Source: a virus (taxonomy: Duplodnaviria; Heunggongvirae; Uroviricota; Caudoviricetes). From it: a stretch of DNA of 11,696 nt. The notes beneath the pieces were generated by a model. That model saw nothing but the letters and a program-made list of their open reading frames with translations. It searched no databases and had not been told where the DNA came from. Every line of letters begins with the position of its first letter. Position 1 is the first letter of the stretch. The DNA lies in IMG/VR virus record IMGVR_UViG_2617270952_000003. One strand, written 5' to 3'. A program made the position numbers and the translations under genes. Below, one piece after another: positions 1 through 11,696 of this stretch.

Positions 1-318
1 ATGAAAAAGATAGCTGCTATATCATTAATTAGTATTTTTATTGTGTCTGGTTGTGCTGTGCATAATGATGAGACAAGTATCGGTAAATTTGGTCTTGCAT
101 ATAAAAGTAATATTCAGCGTAAACTCGATAACCAATACTACACCGAAGCCGAAGCTTCTTTAGCCAGGGGCAGAATATCTGGTGCAGAAAATATAGTAAA
201 AAATGATGCAGCCCATTTCTGTGTTACTCAGGGCAAAAAAATGCAGATAGTTGACCTGAAGACAGAAGGTGCAGGATTACATGGCGTCGCTCGTCTGACA
301 TTCAAATGTGGAGAGTGA
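1..318 (+). CDS. Putative lipoprotein in the left host flank (105 aa)
   Basis: ORF starts at the window's first base with a hydrophobic signal-like N-terminus and a lipobox-like VSGC motif (MKKIAAISLISIFIVSGC). Lies outside the prophage att core. Confidence 0.55.
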   Translation: MKKIAAISLISIFIVSGCAVHNDETSIGKFGLAYKSNIQRKLDNQYYTEAEASLARGRISGAENIVKNDAAHFCVTQGKKMQIVDLKTEGAGLHGVARLTFKCGE

Positions 319-477
319 GAATATTTTTTGGTAAGCGTCAAACATGCGCGTTCTGGTTGTGCTTAGCCGGAACCTGTGCGAGCACGATGCCGTTACGTGA
401 AAGGCATCGTGCTATGAAGGGAGATTCTATCGATGTGGTCAATGGAAGACGGTTACCAGAGATAGGGCTTATGCATA

Positions 478-504
478 AAAAAATAAGCCCGTGTAAGGGC
501 GTTT
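478..504. other. Putative attL core of the P2-like integrase
   Basis: AAAAAATAAGCCCGTGTAAGGGCGTTT matches the P2 attP/attB core as recalled from memory (AAAAAATAAGCCCGTGTAAGGGAGATT) at 25 of 27 positions. It lies about 80 bp beyond the 3' end of int, as in P2. Confidence 0.55.
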
Positions 505-583
505 ATATACCCTTACAACAGGGGCTTTCAGCGGTGCAATGCGGGTTTGCGCGGCACGCAAGACCACTGAAAGCCATAATAAA

Positions 584-1597
584 CTACCCTACTGTGGACA
601 CTGTGTGGACACTCTGAGAGCCAACACCACCACGTAGAGGATTAAGCGTTATCGCGTCCTGTAGGTACTCAGGGGCGAAGTGCGCATATGTCATTGTCTG
701 CTCAATTCTTGAATGCCCAAGTATTCTCTGAAGCGTGATAATGTTGCCTCCGTTTATCATAAAGTGCGTGGCGAAGCTGTGCCGCAATGCGTGCGTAGCC
801 TGACCCGGTGGTAGGTCGGGTTTCAGCTCCTTCATTAGCCGTCTGAACGCGGGATAGTTAGCATCAGTGAACAGATAGCCACGCTTACCCGTTGTGATCA
901 TTGTTGCCAGTTCCTCGGATATAGGAACGGTTCGCGGCTTGTTGGTTTTTGTCTTAACGAAAGTGACGCGATTTTGAATGATATTTTCCGCTTTCAGTTT
1001 TGCTGCCTCACTCCATCTCGCGCCGGTGCTAAGGCAAAGAATCGCAATTTTTTTATTATCACCGTCCACTTTTGACAGCAGAAGCGCGATCTCCTCTTGC
1101 GTCAGGTAGCCGGTTTCTGGCTTATCCTCTTTGAGTCTTTTAAGACCTCGGAAAGGATGCTCCCCGAAAAATAGCTCCGCATCTATCAACGCGGTAAACA
1201 TCCCGCTAAGACACGTTAAATCACGATTTATACTCGATGGCTTGATGCCTTGAGAACGCCGCACAGTGCTGTATTGGCTTATCAATGACTTAGTAATCTG
1301 AAAGGCACAAGGGTCACTGGTTATCTTTGTGAACAACTCTAACTTGCCCAGGTAATCTCGGCCGTGAGTTTCATACTTGCCTTTCAGCTCCCACCAGATT
1401 TTTGTTAGCTCTGACAGATGCCGCTTATCTGTCGGTTTCGCCAACCATTCTTTGTTGTGATGGTTGTACTGGGTATGCTTCTCGAAAGCGATAGCTTCGC
1501 TTTTCTTGTCAAATTTCCTGCGGATGCGCTTTCCGTTGCGCCCTGCAGGTCTAATGTCCACTTCATAACGACCATCATCGAGCTTTTTAACAGACAT
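584..1597 (-). CDS. int: Tyrosine integrase, P2 Int-like
   Basis: Minus-strand ORF. I place the start at the internal Met (MSVKKLDDGRYEVDIRP...), which has a GGGAGG Shine-Dalgarno just upstream on the minus strand. C-terminal region has tyrosine-recombinase motifs (HALRHSFATHF, LGHS...TMTYAH). Sits next to the att core. Confidence 0.9.
   Translation of the reverse strand: MSVKKLDDGRYEVDIRPAGRNGKRIRRKFDKKSEAIAFEKHTQYNHHNKEWLAKPTDKRHLSELTKIWWELKGKYETHGRDYLGKLELFTKITSDPCAFQITKSLISQYSTVRRSQGIKPSSINRDLTCLSGMFTALIDAELFFGEHPFRGLKRLKEDKPETGYLTQEEIALLLSKVDGDNKKIAILCLSTGARWSEAAKLKAENIIQNRVTFVKTKTNKPRTVPISEELATMITTGKRGYLFTDANYPAFRRLMKELKPDLPPGQATHALRHSFATHFMINGGNIITLQRILGHSRIEQTMTYAHFAPEYLQDAITLNPLRGGVGSQSVHTVSTVG
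593..612. repeat. Direct repeat TGTGGACAC x2, possible Int arm-type binding sites
   Basis: TGTGGACAC occurs at 593-601 and 604-612, one helical turn apart, beside the att core and overlapping the 3' end of int. It resembles the P2 Int arm-site consensus as I recall it. Confidence 0.35.
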
Positions 1598-1693
1598 AAA
1601 GCCTCCCGATGATGTTACTGCGTACTTCAATTTCCTGATTTAAATAACAAAAACTCACCGTGCATTTACTGCACAGATAAGCACCGTAAATGG

Positions 1694-1990
1694 TTAGCCA
1701 GTTTTCTGGTCTGAGTGGGGTGACGTTGTTGTCTGCTGCCCAAAGTGCGCGAGAGCCGGTGCAATCTGCCCAGCTTCTGGTGATATCGTCTCAGTCATGA
1801 ACCACATGGTATATTTTTTGAACTGTGGATGATTCAAAATCTTCATCACTGCTTGTATGCCCATATCTTTTACTCCCTTCTCATAACTAGAAAGAGAGCT
1901 ATACGGAACTCCAGTTAAGTCACTGAATTCTTTTCTATTCATACGTTCCGACTCACGCATGATGGCCAGCTTCTCGTTGACGGGTATCAT
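1694..1990 (-). CDS. C: Immunity repressor, P2 C-like (about 98 aa)
   Basis: Divergent from cox and upstream of int, as in P2. Start placed at the internal Met (MIPVNEKLAIMRESERMNRKEFSDLTGVPYSSLSSYEKG), which gives an HTH-like N-terminus. The C-terminal tail (QIAPALAHFGQ...TTSPHS.QKTG) matches my recollection of P2 C. Confidence 0.75.
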   Translation of the reverse strand: MIPVNEKLAIMRESERMNRKEFSDLTGVPYSSLSSYEKGVKDMGIQAVMKILNHPQFKKYTMWFMTETISPEAGQIAPALAHFGQQTTTSPHSDQKTG

Positions 1991-2073
1991 CGTAATTAAC
2001 ACTCCACTATTGATAGAAAAACGATAACGGAGTAGTCTTCGCTTCGTTACCGCAGATTTATGGCTCCAATATG

Positions 2074-2104
2074 GCAATTAAAAGCCATTAGGAGCAATTA
2101 AAAC
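2074..2104. promoter_or_regulatory. Putative C-repressor operator / early promoter region (direct repeats GCAATTAAAA)
   Basis: GCAATTAAAA occurs at 2074-2083 and 2094-2103, 20 bp centre to centre, in the C-cox intergenic region. P2 C repressor is known to bind direct repeats flanking the early promoter. A GAGGAA ribosome-binding site precedes cox. Confidence 0.4.
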
Positions 2105-2125
2105 ACTAACGAGGAATAGTCACAA

Positions 2126-2401
2126 ATGAATAGGGTCATTGAGAGCGCGAGCGACGCGGTTCCGTATCAGGAGTTTGCGCGTCTTATTGGTAAAACCCCT
2201 GCTGCTGTCAAAGGGATGATTGAGAAAGGCAAACTACCGATAGTTGAGATGACTGATCCGCAGTCTACAAGTGGGAGAGCAGGGGAATACTGGGTATATC
2301 TGCCAGCATGGAACAAAGGCATGAAGATGGCCTATGACAGTCGCCCTAAAGAAATTCGGGATGGTTGGTTGATGTGGTTGGGATTAGGTGAACCAGCATA
2401 A
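2126..2401 (+). CDS. cox: Cox-like excisionase/transcriptional regulator (91 aa)
   Basis: First rightward gene, divergent from C. Length matches P2 Cox (91 aa). Position and orientation are as in P2. Confidence 0.7.
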   Translation: MNRVIESASDAVPYQEFARLIGKTPAAVKGMIEKGKLPIVEMTDPQSTSGRAGEYWVYLPAWNKGMKMAYDSRPKEIRDGWLMWLGLGEPA

Positions 2402-2411
2402 GGAGCCAGAA

Positions 2412-2582
2412 ATGAAAGAGCCACGTTGTATAGCTCAGTTACTGCGTAACGAAAGTCCACGCCCGATGAAGTTCAACATCACTCATGGTAAAGGGCGTAA
2501 AGGCATCATCATCCGCACTCGCAAGCCTGGATTTATTGCTATGGCTAAACGCTTTATGAAATCCCGAGGGATATCGTTATGA
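2412..2582 (+). CDS. Small early-region ORF (56 aa), P2 orf78-like by position
   Basis: ATG at 2412 is preceded by AGGAG with a 6-nt spacer. Its stop overlaps the start of B (ATGA at 2579-2582). Basic small protein. Confidence 0.5.
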   Translation: MKEPRCIAQLLRNESPRPMKFNITHGKGRKGIIIRTRKPGFIAMAKRFMKSRGISL

Positions 2583-3079
2583 CGGTTATGACTCTTGCAT
2601 TAGTTCAAAAACAACCTGCAGCTCTACGCGTCGTTATAGGAAAGCATCTTGCGGAACCTCGCTGGCACGATACCTGTGATTTTTATAATCAGATGATGGA
2701 GCGTGACCGCTTGACTGTCTGTTTTCATGCTCGGTTAAAACAGCGTCACGCAGTAATGCGCTTTGAAGAAATGAATGATGTCGACCGCGAACGTCTGGCT
2801 TGTGCTATCGATGAGCTGCGCGCTGCTTTTTCAAAACGTCGTCAGGTTGGCGCAAGTGAATCTGCATATATTAGTTTTCTAACGGTGGGTCAGCGCCGCT
2901 CTTTATTTCTACACGCGGGATTGAGTGAGGTCGAGTTCAATCAGCCTTACTGGCGCATTGACGAAGATGCTTGTTATTGGCGAGAGAAACTATTCCGCGC
3001 TTTGCGTGAGCTTTTTGGGTTATTTGAACACGCGCCAACGATATTAACCTCGGTAAAGCCTGAGCAGTATTTACATTAA
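2579..3079 (+). CDS. B: Replication accessory protein, P2 B-like (166 aa)
   Basis: Same length as P2 B (166 aa) and same position between cox/orf78 and A. Translationally coupled to the upstream ORF. Confidence 0.6.
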   Translation: MTVMTLALVQKQPAALRVVIGKHLAEPRWHDTCDFYNQMMERDRLTVCFHARLKQRHAVMRFEEMNDVDRERLACAIDELRAAFSKRRQVGASESAYISFLTVGQRRSLFLHAGLSEVEFNQPYWRIDEDACYWREKLFRALRELFGLFEHAPTILTSVKPEQYLH

Positions 3080-3145
3080 TTAATCTGGATTCGTTTTATT
3101 ACACGCCTTACTGCGTGGGGATTCCTTTTGTCTGGAGATAGGCAA

Positions 3146-3364
3146 ATGCATAAACAAAATAAAGTGCCGACGTGTGTGCTCTCGGTACATCTGGCGCAAG
3201 CGTTGCGCGATGCGCAGCTCGATACCGCGACCCGTTTATCCTCTCATTTTGATCGCCTAATTGCGCACATCAGTAAGTTAGAACTCAACCGCACCGAGAT
3301 CATCGAGCTATTGGGGCAAGAGTCCGAAAAATTGCACAACTCAATTTTTCATTGTGCTTGCTAA
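3146..3364 (+). CDS. Small early-region hypothetical protein (72 aa)
   Basis: ATG at 3146 with GGAG upstream. Lies in the P2 orf80-83 interval. Confidence 0.45.
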   Translation: MHKQNKVPTCVLSVHLAQALRDAQLDTATRLSSHFDRLIAHISKLELNRTEIIELLGQESEKLHNSIFHCAC

Positions 3365-3386
3365 TCAATTTTAGAAGGAGACAAAA

Positions 3387-3662
3387 ATGAGTATCCGTAT
3401 CGAGATAAATCATCAGTATGTAGTTACAAGCGATCGCTACCAGTTCATTTTGCAGGAAAAGAAAGTGGCGACTGCTGGAAAAAATAAAGGTAGCGAATGG
3501 CTTGATACTGTCGGGTATTACCCGACGATTCAAAAACTGATTTCTGGTCTGGTGCTACATGACCTTTTAAATGGCGGTGCTGATAGTTTTGCGGCGTTGG
3601 GTGAGCAGGTCGAGCAGTTGGGACTGCAATGTCAGACCGCGTTTTGTGCTGATGGCCGTTGA
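3387..3662 (+). CDS. Early-region hypothetical protein (91 aa)
   Basis: Strong ribosome-binding site (GAAGGAGACAAAAATG). Its stop overlaps the A start. P2 orf82/83-like by position. Confidence 0.55.
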   Translation: MSIRIEINHQYVVTSDRYQFILQEKKVATAGKNKGSEWLDTVGYYPTIQKLISGLVLHDLLNGGADSFAALGEQVEQLGLQCQTAFCADGR

Positions 3663-5943
3663 GACTCGGGGGCGTATTGCCCCCTCGCTAGCCCTGCCAA
3701 TATCTAAGCGCACCGGCGATACTTTCGTTGGTGCTTATCCCTGGAATGCTCCCCGCGCTGCCATTGGCCGTGACAGACCCCTTACACGTGCCGAATTCCG
3801 TCAGGTGCAAGGTGTTTTATACCGGATTGACCGCCTGCCTTTCTTTCTTAAGACGTTGTTTACTTCCCGTTATAACTTCATTCGTCGCACAAAGAGCCCG
3901 CCCGGGGCGCTCTATTTCCTGAAAAACACCTTTGAGCGGAAGCTGTTGCCGCGTCTTGAGCGCGTTAACGAGCTGTGCGGGATGAATGAATCTGCGTCGA
4001 TTGGTTTCTTGTCTGAGCGTGACGAATATGCGCGCTTGCCTGATATGAATGACAAAGAGCTGAAAAAATTTGCGGCCAGAATTGCCGCGCAGCTCTGGCG
4101 TAAATACGAGGAACTCAGCGACGAATGGGCTGAGGCATTCGGCGGTAAAGAGACCCTTTTCACCGATGAGGCGCAGGTGCACATATATGGTCAGGTGGCT
4201 GGTGTTGCACGCGCGTTCAACTTAACCCCGCTCTACTGGAAAAAATACCGTAAGGGTCAGATGACGATCCGCATGGCGTTTTCCGCTATTTCCCGTCTGA
4301 TAAAAGATGATTGGTGGGTTAACCAGCTCAAGGCGCAGCGTATGCGCTGGCGCGAGGCGCTGCTTATCGCTGCCGGTGAAGTCAACAAAGACCGTTCACC
4401 TTACGCCAGCAAAATGGCGATCCGCGAGGTTCACTCGCGCCGGCTGGCTAATCTCGAATACCTGAAATCCTGTGAGCTGGAAAACAAAGTTACCGGCGAA
4501 CGTATCGACCTCATCAGTAAAGTCATGGGGAGTATTTCAAACCCTGAAATACGCCGTATGGAGCTGATGAACACCATTGCCGGAATTGAACGCTATGCGG
4601 CCAGCGTTGGTGATGTGGGAATGTTTATCACGCTGACCACGCCGTCGAAGTATCACCCGACCCGACAGGTCGGCAAAGGTGACAGCAAAACGGTGCAGCT
4701 CAATCACGGCTGGAACGAAACCGCATTCACCCCTAAAAACGGCCAGCGCTATCTGTGCCGAATCTGGAGCCTGATGCGTACCGCTTTCAAAGATAACGAT
4801 TTGGAAGTGTATGGGATGCGCGTTGTCGAGCCGCACCACGACGGCACGCCACACTGGCATATGATGCTTTTTTGCAAACTCAGTCAGCGTAAAGCTATCA
4901 ACGAAATTATGCGTCGTTATGCCCTCAAAGAGGACGGACACGAAAAGGGCGCGGCAAAACAGCGCTTTGAGTCGCGTCACCTTAATCAGGGGGGCGCGGC
5001 GGGTTATATCGCCAAATACATTGCCAAAAATATCGACGGCTACGCGCTTGACGGTCAGCTCGATCACGATACCGGCAAATCTCTGAAAGATACGGCCGCA
5101 GCCGTAACCGCATGGGCGTCTACATGGCGTATCCCTCAGTTTAAACCGATTGGCCTCCCGACAATGGGCGCTTACCGCGAACTGCGTAAGCTGCCGCGCG
5201 GGGTGAGTATCGCCAGCGAGTTTGACGACCGTGTCGAGGCCGTCCGGGCTGCTGCAGATGAGGGGGAATTTGACCTGTACATCAGCGCGCAGGGTGGGGC
5301 AAACATGCCGCGTGATGCTCAGGCGGTCAGGGTCGCCCGTAAGGTGACGGATGAGGTAAACGAATACGAGGAGGATATCGAGAAAGTGGTCGGTATTTAT
5401 GCCCCTCATCTTGGGGTGAGCCGCGTACATGTAACCCGTACAGCGGAATGGCGCATAGTTCCAAAGGTTTTGGCCGTTGAGCCTTTGACCTTAAAAAGCG
5501 GCTCTGCCGCGCCTCGGAGTCCTGTCAATAACTGTGGAAAGCTTGCCGACGGTGGCGATCCAGTTATGACACCTACACCGTCTGAGCAAGCCGCAGCGGT
5601 GTTAAATCTGATTGAGGCCGGGGTTATCGGCTGGAATGAGCCAGACGTCATGAAGGTTCTTAACGGCGCGTTAAAAGCTGGCGCACCTCGCAATAATCGC
5701 CAGCAAAGAAGCAATGCGCCACTCAAAACGAGCGAGCAAGCTCCATCAGCCAGGATGACAAAACCAGAAAGGGATCGCGTGGCGAAAATTCGTTTCGATT
5801 TGGCTCAGGAGGGCATTACCCCGGAACGGTGGGCGCTCGAAGCGCTGGCGCGTGGGGCAACGGTGATTTATGGCGATAAAAAAATCAAATACGCGGCTGC
5901 TGATGAGTGGCCGGGATTCTCAATTCAAGAGGAGCAGAATTAA
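3652..5943 (+). CDS. A: Rolling-circle replication initiator endonuclease, P2 gpA-like (about 763 aa)
   Basis: HUH-type motif PHWHMM at nt 4849-4866 and twin-tyrosine motif GYIAKYIAKN at nt 5002-5031, both hallmarks of the phiX174-A / P2-A initiator superfamily. Start placed at the internal Met MAVETRG (3652), giving a length close to P2 A. Confidence 0.85.
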   Translation: MAVETRGRIAPSLALPISKRTGDTFVGAYPWNAPRAAIGRDRPLTRAEFRQVQGVLYRIDRLPFFLKTLFTSRYNFIRRTKSPPGALYFLKNTFERKLLPRLERVNELCGMNESASIGFLSERDEYARLPDMNDKELKKFAARIAAQLWRKYEELSDEWAEAFGGKETLFTDEAQVHIYGQVAGVARAFNLTPLYWKKYRKGQMTIRMAFSAISRLIKDDWWVNQLKAQRMRWREALLIAAGEVNKDRSPYASKMAIREVHSRRLANLEYLKSCELENKVTGERIDLISKVMGSISNPEIRRMELMNTIAGIERYAASVGDVGMFITLTTPSKYHPTRQVGKGDSKTVQLNHGWNETAFTPKNGQRYLCRIWSLMRTAFKDNDLEVYGMRVVEPHHDGTPHWHMMLFCKLSQRKAINEIMRRYALKEDGHEKGAAKQRFESRHLNQGGAAGYIAKYIAKNIDGYALDGQLDHDTGKSLKDTAAAVTAWASTWRIPQFKPIGLPTMGAYRELRKLPRGVSIASEFDDRVEAVRAAADEGEFDLYISAQGGANMPRDAQAVRVARKVTDEVNEYEEDIEKVVGIYAPHLGVSRVHVTRTAEWRIVPKVLAVEPLTLKSGSAAPRSPVNNCGKLADGGDPVMTPTPSEQAAAVLNLIEAGVIGWNEPDVMKVLNGALKAGAPRNNRQQRSNAPLKTSEQAPSARMTKPERDRVAKIRFDLAQEGITPERWALEALARGATVIYGDKKIKYAAADEWPGFSIQEEQN

Positions 5944-6407
5944 TGAGCAAAATCCATGAGTTAAAAATTGCACCTGAGTATTTTAACTCTGTGATATCTC
6001 AGGAAAAACGTGCTGAATTTCGTCTCAATGACCGCGATTATTCTAGCGGTGATATTCTCGGGTTGCATGAATGGGAACCGGTAAACAGATATACCGGGAA
6101 ACGTGTATCAGTGAGGGTGACAAACGTTACGGATTTATCTGAATGGGCGGAAAATTATGTGATGCTGAGTTTTCAGTTAATGATGCCAGATGTCCAGTGC
6201 GGTATGTCCCTAATGAACTGGAAAGAGTTAAGCGAGAAGGGGCTTGTTTTCAGAGTTAATCACGAAATTCTACACCCGTTAGGGCTGGCTATTAGATATG
6301 AAACACTTAACAGCGTTTCTGGTAGGGCTTACATCGCTGATGATGGTGTCTGGCAATATTCCGACAAGTTGGTCGCAGATGCTAAAAAAAATGGGTGGTT
6401 AAAATGA
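5943..6407 (+). CDS. DUF3850 / ASCH-like protein (154 aa), P2 orf91-like by position
   Basis: Start overlaps the A stop (TAATG) with a GAGGAG ribosome-binding site. N-terminus MSKIHELKIAPEYFNSVISQEKRAEFRLNDRDY resembles the DUF3850 (ASCH-like) fold family found downstream of A in P2-like phages. Confidence 0.6.
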   Translation: MSKIHELKIAPEYFNSVISQEKRAEFRLNDRDYSSGDILGLHEWEPVNRYTGKRVSVRVTNVTDLSEWAENYVMLSFQLMMPDVQCGMSLMNWKELSEKGLVFRVNHEILHPLGLAIRYETLNSVSGRAYIADDGVWQYSDKLVADAKKNGWLK

Positions 6408-6643
6408 GTCATATGCGAATGATGCCAGTGCCGCCGATACATTCAACGCAAAACATTAAGCTGATGGCCGTCGTACATCGCCTGCAACAAATTATGATTA
6501 ACGAGAATCTGACCCCTGACGAACTGGTCGGGTGTGCCGGTGTCGTCCGGGATAATCACCGCAAATACAGCGATATCAGCAATCCGAAAATTGAGGCGTT
6601 TCGGCCACCAAATATGGCAAAGCCACCACCGCGTCGACCATAG
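6404..6643 (+). CDS. Hypothetical small protein (79 aa)
   Basis: ATGA overlap with the preceding ORF's stop and GGTGG upstream. No recognisable motifs. Occupies the position where P2 carries tin/old. Confidence 0.35.
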   Translation: MSHMRMMPVPPIHSTQNIKLMAVVHRLQQIMINENLTPDELVGCAGVVRDNHRKYSDISNPKIEAFRPPNMAKPPPRRP

Positions 6644-6925
6644 CAAACGCCGCCGGTGCTGAAACTTGTTTTCAGTGCCAGCGGTGTTGAGCAACGAGCC
6701 CCGCGAGACGTTAGCCTGCACCGTAGAGACCACCCCCAACCGGCACGATTAAAGTCGGTTTTATTATGCAATTTTCCCACAATTTCCCGGTTTTTTAGCC
6801 GTGCATGCAACAGGTGCATTTTTTTGCATACGTTGGGGATGCCTGTTCTGGCCGCGCGCCGCCAGAGCAGGCGCGGATCCAGAGTGGTCATGCAACTGCA
6901 TTAAAAACGACCCATAAAGCGGGCA

Positions 6926-6944
6926 GGCGAGGCGGGGTAAGCAT
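6926..6944. other. Putative cos site (19-nt cohesive-end sequence)
   Basis: GGCGAGGCGGGGTAAGCAT matches the P2/186/P4 cohesive end as recalled (GGCGAGGCGGGGAAAGCAC) at 17 of 19 positions. It sits in a GC-rich non-coding stretch (6644-6943). Confidence 0.5.
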
Positions 6945-7015
6945 TGCGCGCGCCTGTCAAAGATATTAAGATTGTCTCAAAATCGATTGATTTTATTGAA
7001 CTAATGGAGCTAGGA

Positions 7016-8572
7016 ATGATTAAGGGTATAGGTCTTCAAAACTTCAGGAGCTTTGTCAACAAAACGTTTATTGATTTAAAACCAATTACAGTATTTGTTG
7101 GTAAGAACAGCAGTGGTAAAAGTTCCCTATTGCGCACATTTCCTTTACTTCGTCAATCTGTAGAAGAAAATACTACTGGCCCAATACTATGGTATGGGAG
7201 ATATGTGGATTTTGGCGATTTTACAGATGTACTTTCCCGAAACTCTGAAAAAAAAGAAATTACGTTTAGTTTTTCACTCTCAATTCCGCCAGAGGTTTCA
7301 CAAAGATATACATATTATCGTTCTACTGATTTAGCAAAGCAACCAACAGATATTGAAGCAGAGTTAACTGTTTACTCTAAAGATAAAAAAACAAAAACGA
7401 AAACGATTAAGCTTATATTGGCTGATTTAACAATATTTATTTCAATGGATGAGAGTAGTAATGTTAAATTACTCATTGAATCAGATGATAAAACAATAGA
7501 GCGTGATGGGATAATAGCTAAAAATCTTGGGCAGTTCATACCAAATCTAATTTTGAAGGGTAAGGAAGACAGTCCTCCTCCAAGCACATCATTCTATTTG
7601 AGACATTCTAGGCATGACAGGGCGTTAGAATTGTCATTTATTGATTCAGCGGCGAAATATATAAAGAAATATTTCCATACTAAATCTGATATAAATCAAG
7701 TGACAGAGGCATTCAAAAGAATTGGCTTTATACCCAAAGCGTACGCTAGTAAATTAGTTGCTTTTCTATTTAAGGAACAAAAAGTTTTTAGTAGAAACTT
7801 TGAATTTCAACATGATGAAATAATGAATGAGTTATATCCATTTATAATTGGATGGAATATTAATAATCTTATAGATATAATAAATACATCCTTGTCAGAT
7901 TCATTCAGAAATGTAAAGTACATAGCTCCACTGCGTGCTACATCAGAAAGATTTTATCGTTTTCAAGATTTACAGGTTAATGAGATAGATCATACTGGTT
8001 CCAATCTTGCAATGCTTTTGAATTCATTAAGACCGGCTGATAAATCAAAATTTGAAGATTGGACAAAGTTAAATTTTGATTTCATTATCAAGGTTGAACA
8101 AAGTGGCTCTCACTTTGCAATTTTAATAAACACCGGTGAAAATAGTGAGAACTATAATGTTAGTGATATGGGGTTTGGTTATTCTCAGGTTTTGCCGATA
8201 GTTACAGCCATTTGGCTTGAGACAGAACGTCGTGCTACCACGGTTAGAAAACCTATAACATTTATCATTGAGCAGCCAGAATTGCATTTACATCCGTCAT
8301 ATCAGCATAATTTAGCAAGTATTTTTGCAAAAGTAGTAACTAAAGCAAAAGAAAATAATGTAGATTTGAAGATAATTTTTGAGACACATAGCCAGACCAT
8401 GATTGAAGCACTTGGTGAATATATTGAGGAAAATGAAAGTCTTTCACAGGATGATATTTCAATACTGGTATTTGAAAAAGATGATAAGCAGCAGACTATA
8501 GTTAAGAAATCTTATTTTGACGAGAATGGTTTCCTAAAAAATTGGCCGGTTGGCTTTTTCTCGGGTAAGTAG
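7016..8572 (+). CDS. OLD-family / AAA_21-type ABC ATPase (518 aa), candidate defense ATPase (PARIS AriA-like or Septu PtuA-like architecture)
   Basis: Walker A GKNSSGKSS at nt 7101-7127. Walker B / D-loop FIIEQPELHLHP at nt 8261-8296. Signature-like SDMGFGYSQ and H-loop-like FETHS. Lys/Thr-rich insert (KDKKTKTKTIK) between the ATPase lobes. ATG at 7016 is preceded by GGAG. The gene is AT-rich relative to the phage backbone. Confidence 0.8.
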   Translation: MIKGIGLQNFRSFVNKTFIDLKPITVFVGKNSSGKSSLLRTFPLLRQSVEENTTGPILWYGRYVDFGDFTDVLSRNSEKKEITFSFSLSIPPEVSQRYTYYRSTDLAKQPTDIEAELTVYSKDKKTKTKTIKLILADLTIFISMDESSNVKLLIESDDKTIERDGIIAKNLGQFIPNLILKGKEDSPPPSTSFYLRHSRHDRALELSFIDSAAKYIKKYFHTKSDINQVTEAFKRIGFIPKAYASKLVAFLFKEQKVFSRNFEFQHDEIMNELYPFIIGWNINNLIDIINTSLSDSFRNVKYIAPLRATSERFYRFQDLQVNEIDHTGSNLAMLLNSLRPADKSKFEDWTKLNFDFIIKVEQSGSHFAILINTGENSENYNVSDMGFGYSQVLPIVTAIWLETERRATTVRKPITFIIEQPELHLHPSYQHNLASIFAKVVTKAKENNVDLKIIFETHSQTMIEALGEYIEENESLSQDDISILVFEKDDKQQTIVKKSYFDENGFLKNWPVGFFSGK

Positions 8573-8574
8573 TT

Positions 8575-9687
8575 ATGTTGATTAATATCGAAAATGCGAC
8601 ACCTGAGAAGGTGCTAAATAACTCATTTGCCATAGCGGTTGAAAATATACTTCGGGCATTCGCTGAACAAAAACACTTGGTTATAGGGGCAAGGGTTTTT
8701 TTTAAAACTATTATCAATGATCAAAGCGGGCTTTATAGCCTTTCATCAAAAAGTTACGCGCAAGAGGCTTTGTCGGGTCTAACAGAGTACTATGCTATCT
8801 TGGATCAGGTCTCATTTTATGTATCTGTCGACTTTAATATTAGTGATAAATCATTTAAATGGGTTCAGATCGGTGAATCTTTTAAATTTGTTTGTGGTCC
8901 ATTGTATTTTAATGACTCGGCACAATTGCAAAAAACGAAAATAGTATGTGAAAATCCTTTGGATTCTGATTTTTTTAAGGTTATAGCGGCTCATTATGCC
9001 GAAGGTATTAACTTATCTCGCTGCGAAATGGGTTTTATCGCTCTAAATGGCGGTGGGGGCAGTACTAAGGATATATTCGAGCGTGCAATTCAAAATAATG
9101 AGATAGTTTTTTGTATTGTGGATAATGACAAAAAACATCCTGGAGCCCCATTCGGAGGTACTTGCTCACATTTTTTGGGCTCACAAATTACTCGCTCAGG
9201 TTTCGTGGAGATTTTAGATGTACATGAAATAGAATCTCTAGTTCCTTTATCGACAATTGAAGATGTATTAAGAAGTCAAAGTCAATTGCAACAAAAAGAA
9301 AAATCTCTCATTTTCTTTAAGCATCTTTGCTCCGTAGATGAATCAGTAAAATTTTATATTGACCATAAAAAAGGTTTTGATTTTAAAACAGCCCTTGAAC
9401 TCGATCGAAAACATGGTGCATATTGGCGTCCGATATTAAAGAAGCTTGATATAAAATATGATTGTGAGTATATCGAATCAAAACGTTGTAGCTGCAACGC
9501 TGCTTGTGTAAGTTATGATGGTTTTGGAGAGAATTTGCTCAGCAATACATTGAAATATATACAAAAGGGAAGTTTAAAAAAATATAATCCTCACCTAACA
9601 CCAGTGCTTTCTGATAAATGGTATAAGTTAGGTAAGAATTTCTTTAGTTGGAGTTGTGGTCCATATAAAAAAGCAAGGGTTGGTTAA
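8575..9687 (+). CDS. TOPRIM-like (DUF4435-like) putative nuclease partner of the ATPase (370 aa)
   Basis: Start is 2 nt after the ATPase stop, suggesting translational coupling. TOPRIM-like motif 1 IVCENPLDSD (Glu at residue 126, nt 8950-8952) and DxD motif CIVDNDKK (nt 9121-9129) about 57 residues later. Gly-rich loop NGGGGS between them. C-terminal Cys cluster CEYIESKRCSCNAAC. The assignment is from motifs only. Confidence 0.55.
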   Translation: MLINIENATPEKVLNNSFAIAVENILRAFAEQKHLVIGARVFFKTIINDQSGLYSLSSKSYAQEALSGLTEYYAILDQVSFYVSVDFNISDKSFKWVQIGESFKFVCGPLYFNDSAQLQKTKIVCENPLDSDFFKVIAAHYAEGINLSRCEMGFIALNGGGGSTKDIFERAIQNNEIVFCIVDNDKKHPGAPFGGTCSHFLGSQITRSGFVEILDVHEIESLVPLSTIEDVLRSQSQLQQKEKSLIFFKHLCSVDESVKFYIDHKKGFDFKTALELDRKHGAYWRPILKKLDIKYDCEYIESKRCSCNAACVSYDGFGENLLSNTLKYIQKGSLKKYNPHLTPVLSDKWYKLGKNFFSWSCGPYKKARVG

Positions 9688-9690
9688 ATT

Positions 9691-9727
9691 ATCACAGCCC
9701 CGATAAAGTGGGCTGTGATGTTATTAT
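9691..9727 (+). terminator. Rho-independent terminator of the cargo operon
   Basis: Inverted repeat ATCACAGCCC / GGGCTGTGAT (9691-9700 and 9710-9719) with a 9-nt loop, followed by a T-rich run (GTTATTATCTG), just after the partner gene stop. Confidence 0.5.
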
Positions 9728-9782
9728 CTGTGGTTCTTGAGTTACAGGGCTGAATATAATGTTGAGATGTTTATTTTGAAAA

Positions 9783-10232
9783 TCAAAGTGAATATTTTTT
9801 AAATCTTATAACTTCCATTTCTAACCAGTTGTTTAGTTCTTTGAACCGTTCCTGTAAAGGAGTTAACTCATTTCGGACAAACACTTGTGCAGCTTTTACA
9901 ACATCACCAAAACCGCCAACATTGTTAGGCATAATTCCCATCATTTGTGGTGGTACCCTATGAGCACTCAACAAATCTTCTGCACTAACCTTTTTGATAT
10001 TGAAAAAATCATCTTTCGTGGCGACTTCACTCAACGGCACAATCTTGATGCCATCCGGTTTGCCGTTGGGCGCGTAGAAAAACAAGTTTTTGAAATTCCC
10101 GAGTCCTTTCGAGTCACGCATCGCGTTGCGGAGCGACTCGACGTCGGTACACAGCCTCAACGGGAGCGGCTTCACGACGGGCTTAGAGCTTGAGGTTAAG
10201 GTTTCTGATGTGGAGTATGAAAGCGAGGAAGT
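9783..10232 (-). pseudogene. Q: Portal protein gene fragment (3' portion only), P2 Q-like, truncated
   Basis: Minus-strand frame encodes ...LLSAHRVPPQMMGIMPNNVGGFGDVVKAAQVFVRNELTPLQERF..., which looks like the conserved C-terminal region of PBSX/P2-family portals. Only about 130-150 codons remain (P2 Q is about 344 aa). The frame is closed by a stop at 10233-10235 and ogr occupies the upstream space. Confidence 0.6.
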
Positions 10233-10316
10233 TTAACGGCGTGTGTTGTTTATGTGTTTGTTTTATAAGTAAAAATTAGTAAAATTAACACATTGAATAC
10301 GCCGGAGACCCTCATC

Positions 10317-10538
10317 ATGTTTCATTGTCCGAAATGCCATCATGCCGCCCACGCCCGCACGAGTCGCTATTTTACTGATACCACAAAAGAGCGGTATCAC
10401 CAGTGCACAAACATTAACTGCAGCTGCACGTTTGTGACCACTGAAACAGTCGAGCGTTTTATCGTGTCGCCGGGGGAAGTAGTACCCGCGCCGCCGCATC
10501 CGACATCATCAGGTCAGCAACAAATTCACTGGATGTGA
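10317..10538 (+). CDS. ogr: Ogr-family zinc-finger late-gene transcriptional activator (73 aa)
   Basis: MFHCPKCHHAAHARTSRYFTDTTKERYHQCTNINCSCTF carries the C-x2-C...C-x4-C zinc-finger signature of P2 Ogr / P4 Delta. GGAGA ribosome-binding site 8 nt upstream. Confidence 0.9.
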   Translation: MFHCPKCHHAAHARTSRYFTDTTKERYHQCTNINCSCTFVTTETVERFIVSPGEVVPAPPHPTSSGQQQIHWM

Positions 10539-10546
10539 CAAACGAG

Positions 10547-10572
10547 AAAGCCCCGCGAATGCGGGGCTTTTT
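10547..10572 (+). terminator. Rho-independent terminator downstream of ogr
   Basis: AAAGCCCCGC-GAAT-GCGGGGCTTT hairpin with a GC-rich stem, followed by TTTTT. Confidence 0.8.
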
Positions 10573-10844
10573 GCAACTTTTAGATCAGTTATGTTAAGTA
10601 CATTTCCGTCGGCAAAGTGCCAGGAGCGGGTTCTAGAGAGTGACTAACGTTAGTTATATGTGTAAAATTCCTTAAAAATAAGAAGGATATATATCCATGA
10701 CAGCAATTGCATATTGGATTAACTGAGAATCAATTGAGAAATTTTGGGGGGGGCAAAAAATAAACTAGCTAATTAAATTTTTATAAATAACGAATATAAG
10801 ACTGCAAGCCATTTAACAAAAGTTTATAAATAAAGGAGTCAGTT

Positions 10845-11696
10845 TTGAACAATATCCCCATATCTACTCAATGGACTTTAGACGCTACGGGTGAAGTTGG
10901 ACGCTCATCAGTAAATTCTGTTTATATGATTATATGTCCTGCGACAGGCTCGAAAGGATCTGGTTTTTTAATAGATAATGGGTTAATAGTAACGAACGAG
11001 CATGTTATCACTGGATGCTCTACAAATCAGATTTTCGCAATTTCAGCTTATGGACAGAAGATTCCAATTTCTCAAAAATGGATAGATTCTGATCGCGATT
11101 TAGCTGTGCTGAGACCTGCCATTACCCAGACTGGTGGGCTAAGTATTGTTAAGGATAATGATCTTAAAGTTGGTGAATCAGTAACAACTTGGGGATACCC
11201 ATTAGGATACAACGGTCCTGCACCGTTACTATCCGTTGGTTATCTAGCAGGATTTAACTCATACCAAACCGCCAAGGGACAAAAAAAACATCTAGTGGTA
11301 AATGGGGCATTTAACTCAGGAAATTCTGGTGGAGCTCTTTTAAAAGCTTCAGATAATAAAGTAATAGGTATTGTAGTGAGTAAGCATGCTCCTATCAGTC
11401 AATACCATCAATCAGCTATTGAAGCTTTGTCTGAAAATATGAGTGGCGTCACCTATACCGCTACTAATGACGCTGGAGAAACTAAAAGTTTTGTAGAATC
11501 TCAAATTGTAGCAGAATTATTGATTCATATGAGAAGTCTAACTCAAGTTATGATTGGAGAAGCAATTGCAGCAGAGGAATTACTTTCGATGCTTAGCGAA
11601 ATTGACTTGAGTCCACCACAATCTATGTCAAGAAATGCCTTATGTCATTGCGGGAGTGGAAAACGCTTCAAAGAATGTCATGGAAAGATATCCTAG
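10845..11696 (+). CDS. Trypsin-like (S1/Trypsin_2) serine protease with C-terminal SEC-C zinc-binding motif (283 aa)
   Basis: Catalytic triad contexts TNEHV (His), DRDLAVL (Asp) and GNSGGAL (Ser). C-terminal CHCGSGKRFKECHG is a SEC-C motif. TTG start with AAGGAG 7 nt upstream. AT-rich. The ORF ends exactly at the window edge (TAG at 11694-11696). Confidence 0.7.
   Translation: MNNIPISTQWTLDATGEVGRSSVNSVYMIICPATGSKGSGFLIDNGLIVTNEHVITGCSTNQIFAISAYGQKIPISQKWIDSDRDLAVLRPAITQTGGLSIVKDNDLKVGESVTTWGYPLGYNGPAPLLSVGYLAGFNSYQTAKGQKKHLVVNGAFNSGNSGGALLKASDNKVIGIVVSKHAPISQYHQSAIEALSENMSGVTYTATNDAGETKSFVESQIVAELLIHMRSLTQVMIGEAIAAEELLSMLSEIDLSPPQSMSRNALCHCGSGKRFKECHGKIS

Follow-up and report, generated by a model that had tools for sequence, protein, structure and literature searches.

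An AT-rich two-gene cassette, a candidate anti-phage system, beside the cos site of a P2-like Escherichia coli prophage

We examined an 11,696-nucleotide stretch of DNA (IMG/VR virus record IMGVR_UViG_2617270952_000003; hereafter the window), which is Escherichia coli chromosomal DNA containing a P2-like prophage, and focused on a two-gene cargo located between the cos site and the portal gene of this prophage. The first open reading frame (ORF1, 7016–8572, plus strand) codes for a predicted 518-aa NsnB-like ATP-binding cassette (ABC) ATPase, in which an AAA_15/AAA_21 core is followed by a C-terminal DUF3696 helix; its start is that annotated by RefSeq in the identical region of the E. coli genome NZ_AP021944, with GGAG 6 nt upstream. 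The second (ORF2, 8575–9687, plus strand) starts 2 nt past the ORF1 stop codon (8570–8572) and codes for a 370-aa protein composed of an N-terminal alpha/beta domain (residues 1–120), a Toprim-like core (~121–235) and a helical C-terminal region with a Cys cluster. To the left of these genes lie the non-coding, GC-rich packaging (cos) region of the P2-like backbone (6644–6925), the 19-mer cohesive-end sequence GGCGAGGCGGGGTAAGCAT (6926–6944, plus strand) and the left junction of a variable slot together with the ORF1 leader (6952–7015, plus strand), which contains a GGAG Shine-Dalgarno sequence at 7006–7009. To the right, ORF2 and the portal gene converge on a strong hairpin (9690–9720), located where P2 has its tQ terminator, and this is followed by a fragment of portal gene Q (9783–10150, minus strand, stop at 9783). 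The fold of a 61-nt segment including this hairpin (9680–9740) had a minimum free energy of −20.8 kcal/mol (z = −4.06), and none of 200 shuffles was as stable. The hairpin is a probable bidirectional terminator, and the cargo is a compact two-gene operon closed by it.

A sequence-only reading of this DNA had described the cargo as an AT-rich block with AT-rich codon usage within a GC-richer phage backbone, and our calculations bore this out. GC content was 0.486 in positions 1–6643, 0.542 in gpA and 0.553 in the cos region (6644–6943), compared to 0.339 in 6944–9782. A maximum-likelihood two-change-point fit over 3500–10560 placed the steps at 6959 and 10016 with a log-likelihood gain of 118.6, whereas 100 shuffles of 50-bp blocks gave gains of 15 on average and 29.4 at most. 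The GC step is therefore genuine and well outside what chance would give. GC content at third codon positions (GC3), computed per gene, was 0.25 in ORF1 and 0.27 in ORF2 versus 0.40–0.58 in backbone genes, and codons consisting only of A and T accounted for 28–30% of all codons in the cargo genes versus 13–18% in the backbone genes. The cargo was not the sole AT-rich block, and further low-GC segments were present at the window ends (yegR, 1–318, outside the prophage, 0.39; and 10561–11696, 0.37). The same reading had placed the two breaks at a cos-like site and at the portal stop. The left break indeed coincided with the cos site (6926–6944), and homology with P2 and four P2-like prophages (L022–L025) ended at 6950–6951, but the right break was not at the portal stop: AT-rich composition ran ~215–235 bp past it into the portal reading frame.

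At the left edge, positions 6897–6951 aligned to the P2 cos region at 87%, and 17 of the 19 bases of GGCGAGGCGGGGTAAGCAT were the same in GGCGAGGCGGGGAAAGCAC, which is annotated as cosL/cosR in P2. The cos region was 79–90% conserved in other P2-like prophages. At the right edge, the last ~72 portal codons (9783–9998, minus strand) had a GC content of 0.36, the AT shift being chiefly at third codon positions (GC3, 0.28), and the adjoining portal segment (9999–10150, minus strand) had the backbone composition (GC, 0.50; GC3 of the codons in 9999–10145, 0.67) and was cut off by a deletion at 10150. The portal fragment (residues 11–130) showed 70% protein identity to P2 gpQ.

Divergence was measured between the intact counterpart of the window prophage and a diverged lineage, EC11 (locus L012), which carries the same cargo. 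Mismatch density was 8.5% left of cos, 1.9% in 6952–9782 and 9.0% from 10020 on, and the low-mismatch run spanned 6939–9997, with switches at 6938/6939 and ~9998. These limits, which come from independent information, coincide with the GC change points. Within the portal gene, 9783–9998 was 98% identical to the EC11-type prophage and the rest ~86%; compared to prophages with other or no cargo, the same 3′ ~215 bp were only 57–81% identical and the rest of the gene 80–90%. The exchanged unit (~6952–9998) consists of the cargo together with the last ~72 portal codons. That the cargo is an exchanged module is almost certain, and P2-like genomes probably pass it to one another by homologous recombination. 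In the simplest reading, one crossover would take place at cos and the second within the 3′ part of Q, with a short portal "handle" carried along with the cargo. The first 210 bp of the portal gene had a GC content of 0.37–0.46 beside occupied slots and 0.56 beside empty slots, which, in this small sample, suggests that portal 3′ ends generally travel with cargo. The GC content of the portal 3′ end was 0.40–0.46 in L022 and L025, both of which have other cargo. A transposon or integrative-element origin was rejected, as 6600–10200 contained no convincing flanking direct or inverted repeats, transposase or integrase.

Comparison with related P2-like prophages, which had been proposed as a check on the sequence-only reading, showed that the slot was either empty, filled with other AT-rich cargo or occupied by the same cassette, while its flanks were homologous. 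In P2, the cos-to-portal slot contains the tQ terminator only (167 bp), with old and tin on the other side of cos. It was essentially empty in 600029 and EC6868 (L023 and L024; 176–177 bp, GC 0.61). OkiPb01676 had a GmrSD-domain protein and a hypothetical protein in a 1946-bp slot (L022 5557–7496; GC 0.353), FORC 064 had two other hypothetical proteins in a 1794-bp slot (L025 5305–7092; GC 0.333), and EC11 and UTAK-6 (L012 and L011, respectively) had the same cassette as the window (2838 bp and GC 0.34 in EC11). At least 80% of the 3.1-kb region was present in 39 of 5,426 complete E. coli genomes, and every copy was chromosomal. Cargo of varying content lies between gpA (3652–5943) and portal gene Q, beside cos, and the slot is part of the gpA-gpQ hotspot that has been described in P2-like phages (Rousset et al. 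2022, PMC9122126; also PMC13586616). The former reports 1,650 arrangements in 18,150 loci and an enrichment of the hotspot in validated defense systems, and its Table S5 lists the exact ORF2 protein (WP_000906719) at least 11 times. The compositional break is ordinary and already described: AT-rich swappable cargo in the P2 cos-adjacent hotspot, in an arrangement that is present in the published catalogue.

The cargo, which the sequence-only reading did not identify, had further been interpreted as a horizontally acquired moron from a different donor. Acquisition was supported by four independent lines of evidence: (i) the slot is 167–177 bp in P2 and two E. coli prophages versus 2.8 kb here, (ii) unrelated cargo occupies the same slot in other related prophages, (iii) 6939–9997 differs by 1.9% from the EC11 lineage where the backbone differs by 8.5–9%, and (iv) the gene pair recurs in unrelated settings, namely an inovirus of Pseudomonas, a chromosomal island of Klebsiella, cyanobacteria and a Firmicute. 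The moron features that we observed were the distinct composition and the strong hairpin after ORF2; no promoter-like site was seen upstream of ORF1. The part of the interpretation that took low GC as the composition of a different donor did not hold. We analyzed 12 loci, which were from Klebsiella aerogenes (an island beside rplS), Pectobacterium, Morganella, Pseudomonas inovirus 62-2, Thiothrix, Vibrio, a Desulfuromonadales metagenome-assembled genome, four cyanobacteria (Geitlerinema, Planktothrix and two Oscillatoriales) and Lachnoanaerobaculum; 8 loci came from a search with the closer of two alignments. In all 12, an ORF1 homolog was directly upstream of an ORF2 homolog on the same strand, and the cassette had a lower GC content than its flanks (0.27–0.405 versus 0.35–0.58), by 7–19 GC points whatever the GC content of the host. 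Low GC is an intrinsic, standing property of the mobile cassette in every host examined and therefore names no particular donor.

In Pseudomonas phage 62-2 (filamentous, Tubulavirales), the ATPase and the ORF2-like gene form a pair at the genome end, beside a repressor/excisionase module (L013 2399–5035), and the depositors annotated the second gene as "putative OLD family nuclease" and the ATPase as a Rad50-type repair ATPase. Among phage and plasmid collections, ORF2 relatives were detected only in this inovirus and in two Planococcus plasmids. Judged by eye from translated neighbors, the pair adjoins rplI in three cyanobacterial loci (L018, L019 and L021), with an intein-containing dnaB on its other side in L019 and L021; the L018 contig stops inside the cassette. 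The rplI neighborhood may be a chromosomal hotspot in cyanobacteria. Two copies looked inactivated, one in Morganella (L015 6436–9068), which matched in several shifted pieces, and one in Thiothrix (L002 3338–6001), in which the ATPase is split by an insertion sequence (IS) with a DDE_3 transposase.

ORF1 matched the Pfam families AAA_15 (96.2 bits, 4e-27), AAA_21 (69.3 bits, 8e-19) and DUF3696 (30.7 bits, 4e-7; cut-off 22). Among PADLOC models, its best match was Menshen NsnB (186 bits, 4.9e-55), followed by PDC-M55A (155 bits, 7.5e-46), HEC-03B, AriA (106 bits, 7e-31) and, more weakly, GajA/Old. The protein contains a Walker A motif (GKNSSGKS, with K35), a signature motif (DMGFGYSQ), a Walker B motif (IIEQPELHLHP), an H-loop (ETHS) and a C-terminal NWPVGFF, and the corresponding patterns (GxNSxGKS, DMGFG(Y/F)SQ, EQPELHLHP, ETHS and NWPxGF) were kept in ORF1 and homologs from six distant loci. 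By sequence, the only match in PDB was a marginal one to a class 1 OLD ATPase (E 0.0011). We assign ORF1, on these motif and profile matches, to the ABC ATPases of the NsnB/OLD-ABC clade that have a DUF3696 tail.

No Pfam match was found for ORF2, and its sole PADLOC match was PDC-M55B (19 bits, 2.1e-4). This model matched 26 of 36 diverse members of the ORF2 family, with a best E-value of 6.4e-13. A word-indexed search detected 31 ORF2 relatives, and an exhaustive profile search detected a family of 1,858 clusters at 50% identity, nearly all of which were 340–390 aa long and matched end to end. In the 36 diverse members, E126, G161, D183, D185, E220, G267 and W359 were invariant and D130, G159, G160, C180, E218, C299, C305 and C311 nearly so. 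In the AlphaFold2 model (predicted local distance difference test (pLDDT) 90, predicted template modeling score 0.87), E126 directly follows strand 122–125 and D183-x-D185 lies at the end of strand 178–183, which is the Toprim arrangement of a conserved Glu after strand 1 and a DxD motif after strand 3. Structural-match scores were moderate: 7.4 for the Toprim region of class 2 OLD, 6.2 for class 1 OLD, 6.1 for AriB, 6.0 for the retron Eco2 protein and 5.3 for GajA. The Toprim assignment is well supported but not proven, because these scores are moderate and a Foldseek search gave no significant match. The core (E126, D183-x-D185 and E218/E220) is a putative Toprim-type metal-dependent nuclease. 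Residues 1–120 modeled alone (pLDDT 94) gave only generic Rossmann-like matches, and a PIN likeness was not demonstrated. A conserved Cys cluster (C299/C305/C307/C311; residues 299–311, window 9469–9507) was also present, and the only low-confidence loop of the model (residues 300–312) holds the conserved cysteines. This cluster may be a metal site, either zinc or iron-sulfur.

The cargo is most likely a two-gene anti-phage system. The systems nearest to the cassette in their working, by analogy, are PARIS and the NsnB-NsnC half of Menshen. In PARIS, the AriA hexamer holds AriB until it is released by a trigger in an ATP-dependent manner, whereupon AriB dimerizes and cleaves tRNA-Lys (PMC11464382); in the model of NsnB-NsnC, paired DUF3696 tails clamp the NsnC N-terminal domain (PMC12065111). 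We give about an even chance to a similar hold-and-release mechanism here. ORF1 oligomers would hold ORF2 inactive, possibly with the DUF3696 tail on the ORF2 N-terminal domain. An infection cue would be sensed by the ATPase in an ATP-dependent manner, and the nuclease, once released or activated, would cut nucleic acid, either tRNA (as AriB and P2 Old do) or DNA (as GajA does). Phage growth would be stopped, probably at the cost of the infected cell, and the lysogen population would thereby be protected from competing phages. More tentatively, and at somewhat under an even chance, ORF1/ORF2 may represent a distinct and widespread two-gene immune system, in which an NsnB-clade ATPase lacking a ParB-like sensor senses infection directly and controls a Cys-cluster Toprim nuclease, and which spreads between P2-like phages with the portal "handle". 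If so, the system would link the Menshen and PARIS/OLD architectures.

A number of observations weigh against this interpretation. No sigma-70 consensus match was found upstream of ORF1, and matches in the window were no commoner than in shuffles. Foldseek comparison of the ORF2 model with PDB gave no match at E ≤ 0.001, GajA and retron Eco2 being at the top but weak, and PDB sequence and profile searches with ORF2 gave no match. In hhalign comparisons, the ORF2 family aligned in register with AriB of E. coli O42, but with an E-value of 0.008 and a probability of 5%, which is no proof of homology, and no meaningful alignment was obtained with AriB of E. coli B185. The portal hitch-hiking pattern comes from five comparison prophages only, and it is by analogy that an ORF1-ORF2 interaction, a trigger and a substrate are proposed. 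A literature search returned no paper on PDC-M55 or on the two RefSeq protein accessions, the cassette was not among the validated systems in the first of the four parts of Table S2A of PMC9122126, and no defense phenotype has been reported for it.

The lack of a reported defense phenotype also favors a different view, that the cassette is a toxin-antitoxin or addiction module, or a Rad50/SbcC-like repair or replication accessory, which serves the prophage and is not anti-phage. The AAA_21 family is annotated as a "putative AbiEii toxin" domain, ORF1 has weak AAA_23/SMC_N matches, and the Rad50-type annotation of the phage 62-2 homolog points in the same direction. We consider this view unlikely. 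P2, L023 and L024 have an empty slot, which is therefore dispensable, and the best family matches are all components of defense systems. In addition, the pair occupies accessory positions of unrelated mobile elements, beside toxin-antitoxin and IS genes, which is the usual pattern of defense cargo, and the gpA-gpQ hotspot is enriched in validated defense systems (PMC9122126).

Within the candidate defense interpretation, the cargo could be a divergent true PARIS, that is, AriA and a Toprim AriB of the DUF4435 family with an anti-restriction trigger and tRNA-Lys cleavage. PARIS is common in P2/P4 hotspots, ORF1 matched the PADLOC AriA models (7e-31 and 1e-17), and the E...D, GxG and DxD motifs of ORF2 occur in the AriB order, in register with AriB of E. 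coli O42 by hhalign. PARIS detection requires an ATPase passing AAA_15 (32 bits) or AAA_21 (27 bits) next to a DUF4435 (PF14491) protein. ORF1 exceeded both of the ATPase thresholds, but no DUF4435 match at E ≤ 1 was found in ORF2 or in any of the 36 family members, and the PADLOC AriB model matched only one of the 36 (4e-4). ORF1 itself scored lower with AriA than with NsnB and PDC-M55A (106, 186 and 155 bits, respectively) and has the NsnB-type GFG signature and an EQ Walker B, whereas AriA of E. coli B185 has SGE and DE. ORF2 also carries a Cys cluster and, at its N-terminus, an additional domain of 120 aa; the Toprim glutamate of AriB is at residue 26, with no long N-terminal domain ahead of it (PMC11464382), and the examined AriB sequences have no such cluster. 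A true PARIS is therefore improbable.

We also regard as improbable that the cargo is a decayed, non-functional Menshen that has lost the gene for its NsnA (ParB-DUF262) sensor. In its favor, NsnB is the best PADLOC match of ORF1, which passes NsnB detection, and the DUF3696 tail, a mark of NsnB, is present. NsnC has an N-terminal inactive PIN domain and a C-terminal nuclease effector, which is Toprim in some members (PMC12065111), and in ORF2, likewise, an alpha/beta domain at the N-terminus precedes the putative nuclease. However, in a motif-level test, the DUF262 hallmark DGQQR was absent in every frame up to ~8 kb on either side in 15 of 16 sequences. The sole match, DGHQR in locus L001, was ~26 kb off on the antisense strand of the baseplate region and was discounted. 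Among the annotated neighbors of the pair in five E. coli and phage records there is no DUF262 gene, and in the window these neighbors are the DUF3850 gene, a small ORF and the portal gene. The two-gene unit stood alone in all 12 loci across phyla with intact catalytic motifs, which argues for selection on the pair itself. Finally, that a local bias of mutation or selection in ancestral phage DNA, and not acquisition, produced the GC step is scarcely credible given the empty slot of other P2-like genomes, the sharp changes in divergence at 6939 and 9997 and the same cassette in non-phage contexts of other phyla, although the last ~72 portal codons, which are AT-rich yet encode a normal portal C-terminus, show that core sequence can have such a composition.

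Window positions 1–10150 were 99.95% identical to E. coli NZ_AP021944 (strain WP2-S18-ESBL-07) 1806788–1816936, and 10146–11696 matched 1837982–1839532 of the same record. According to its annotation, the counterpart in NZ_AP021944 is an intact P2-like prophage with the gene order integrase, C-type repressor, cox, B-like gene, DUF2732, DUF5405, gpA (window 3652–5943; Phage_GPA, 6e-109), DUF3850, small ORF, two cargo genes, portal Q, terminase P, other late genes, gpD, ogr and trypsin-like peptidase. Relative to it, the window prophage has lost ~21 kb of late genes and is defective: at the deletion junction (10146–10150), the middle of the portal gene is joined to the last bases of gpD through a GGTAC microhomology, five bases common to both sides. 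This mid-portal/gpD junction did not occur in any of 5,426 complete E. coli genomes. It is outside the cargo and sets its right-hand context. A 22-bp direct repeat, AAAAAATAAGCCCGTGTAAGGG, was detected at 477–498, and its second copy lies ~240 bp past the right end of the window (L010 4272–4293); the two copies mark attL and attR. The small RNA gene cyaR (Rfam CyaR, 100.7 bits) overlaps at its 3′ end with the right copy, and the prophage is therefore inserted into the terminator of cyaR. Scans of the window itself for Rfam families and tRNAs gave no matches.

Other accessory genes were also observed. On the A side of cos (5943–6643), where P2 has tin and old, the window prophage has only a DUF3850/ASCH gene (GC 0.42), which is homologous to orf91 and carries an additional DUF7415, and a proline-rich ORF of 76 aa. 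The prophage holds another AT-rich accessory gene between ogr and attR (10845–11696; GC 0.39, GC3 0.26). Its product is a Trypsin_2 peptidase that has a SEC-C motif at the C-terminus, and it matched PADLOC RT-Protease_XI in the protease domain (7e-21) as well as the candidate PDC-M35A (6e-13).

What the cargo adds to the known hotspot is a new candidate of the ABC-ATPase-plus-Toprim defense class that, by its predicted features, fits neither PARIS nor Menshen as they are defined. Because the pair is widespread yet outside both systems, it is a reasonable candidate for functional testing. In addition, the low GC of the cassette persists with flanks at 35% to 58% GC, which is a caution against the use of GC as a donor signature, and the exchanged unit takes in the last ~72 codons of an essential structural gene, which suggests that cargo is swapped with cos and the 3′ end of the portal gene acting as recombination arms. 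None of these three points would much surprise a specialist.

Compared to known systems, the locus shares with the P2 hotspot the position between A and Q beside cos, the varying content and a cargo of ~3 kb, and differs from P2 itself in that the cargo is on the Q side of cos, whereas P2 old and tin are on the A side. The likeness to the OLD/Toprim superfamily is in the predicted Toprim fold of ORF2, in which strand 1 is followed by a Glu and strand 3 by DxD. Membership in OLD classes 1–3 was rejected, as the ATPase and the Toprim domain are not fused and are encoded by separate ORFs here and in all 12 loci. Gabija was also rejected, the slot containing only ORF1 and ORF2 and no UvrD-like helicase GajB. 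With regard to the OLD family (P2 Old, class 1; GajA, class 2), the cassette thus has no GajB partner, and ORF2 has no sequence similarity to it that is detectable by hidden Markov models. PARIS (PDB 8v46) differs in both proteins: ORF1 falls in an NsnB-like clade with a DUF3696 tail, and ORF2 has no DUF4435 and has the extra N-terminal domain and Cys cluster. Menshen (PMC12065111) differs by its NsnA/DUF262 gene, which is absent here and beside the examined pairs, and resembles the cassette in the ATPase, as ORF1 has the DUF3696 tail and also the deviations reported for NsnB (PMC12065111), a GxG signature and a Glu-first Walker B, with Glu replacing Asp. The closest two-gene layout is that of PDC-M55, a computational candidate from which window ORF2 is separated on a divergent branch (19 bits) and whose components are matched by adjacent genes in the cassette, PDC-M55A by ORF1 (7.5e-46) and PDC-M55B, weakly, by ORF2 (2.1e-4).

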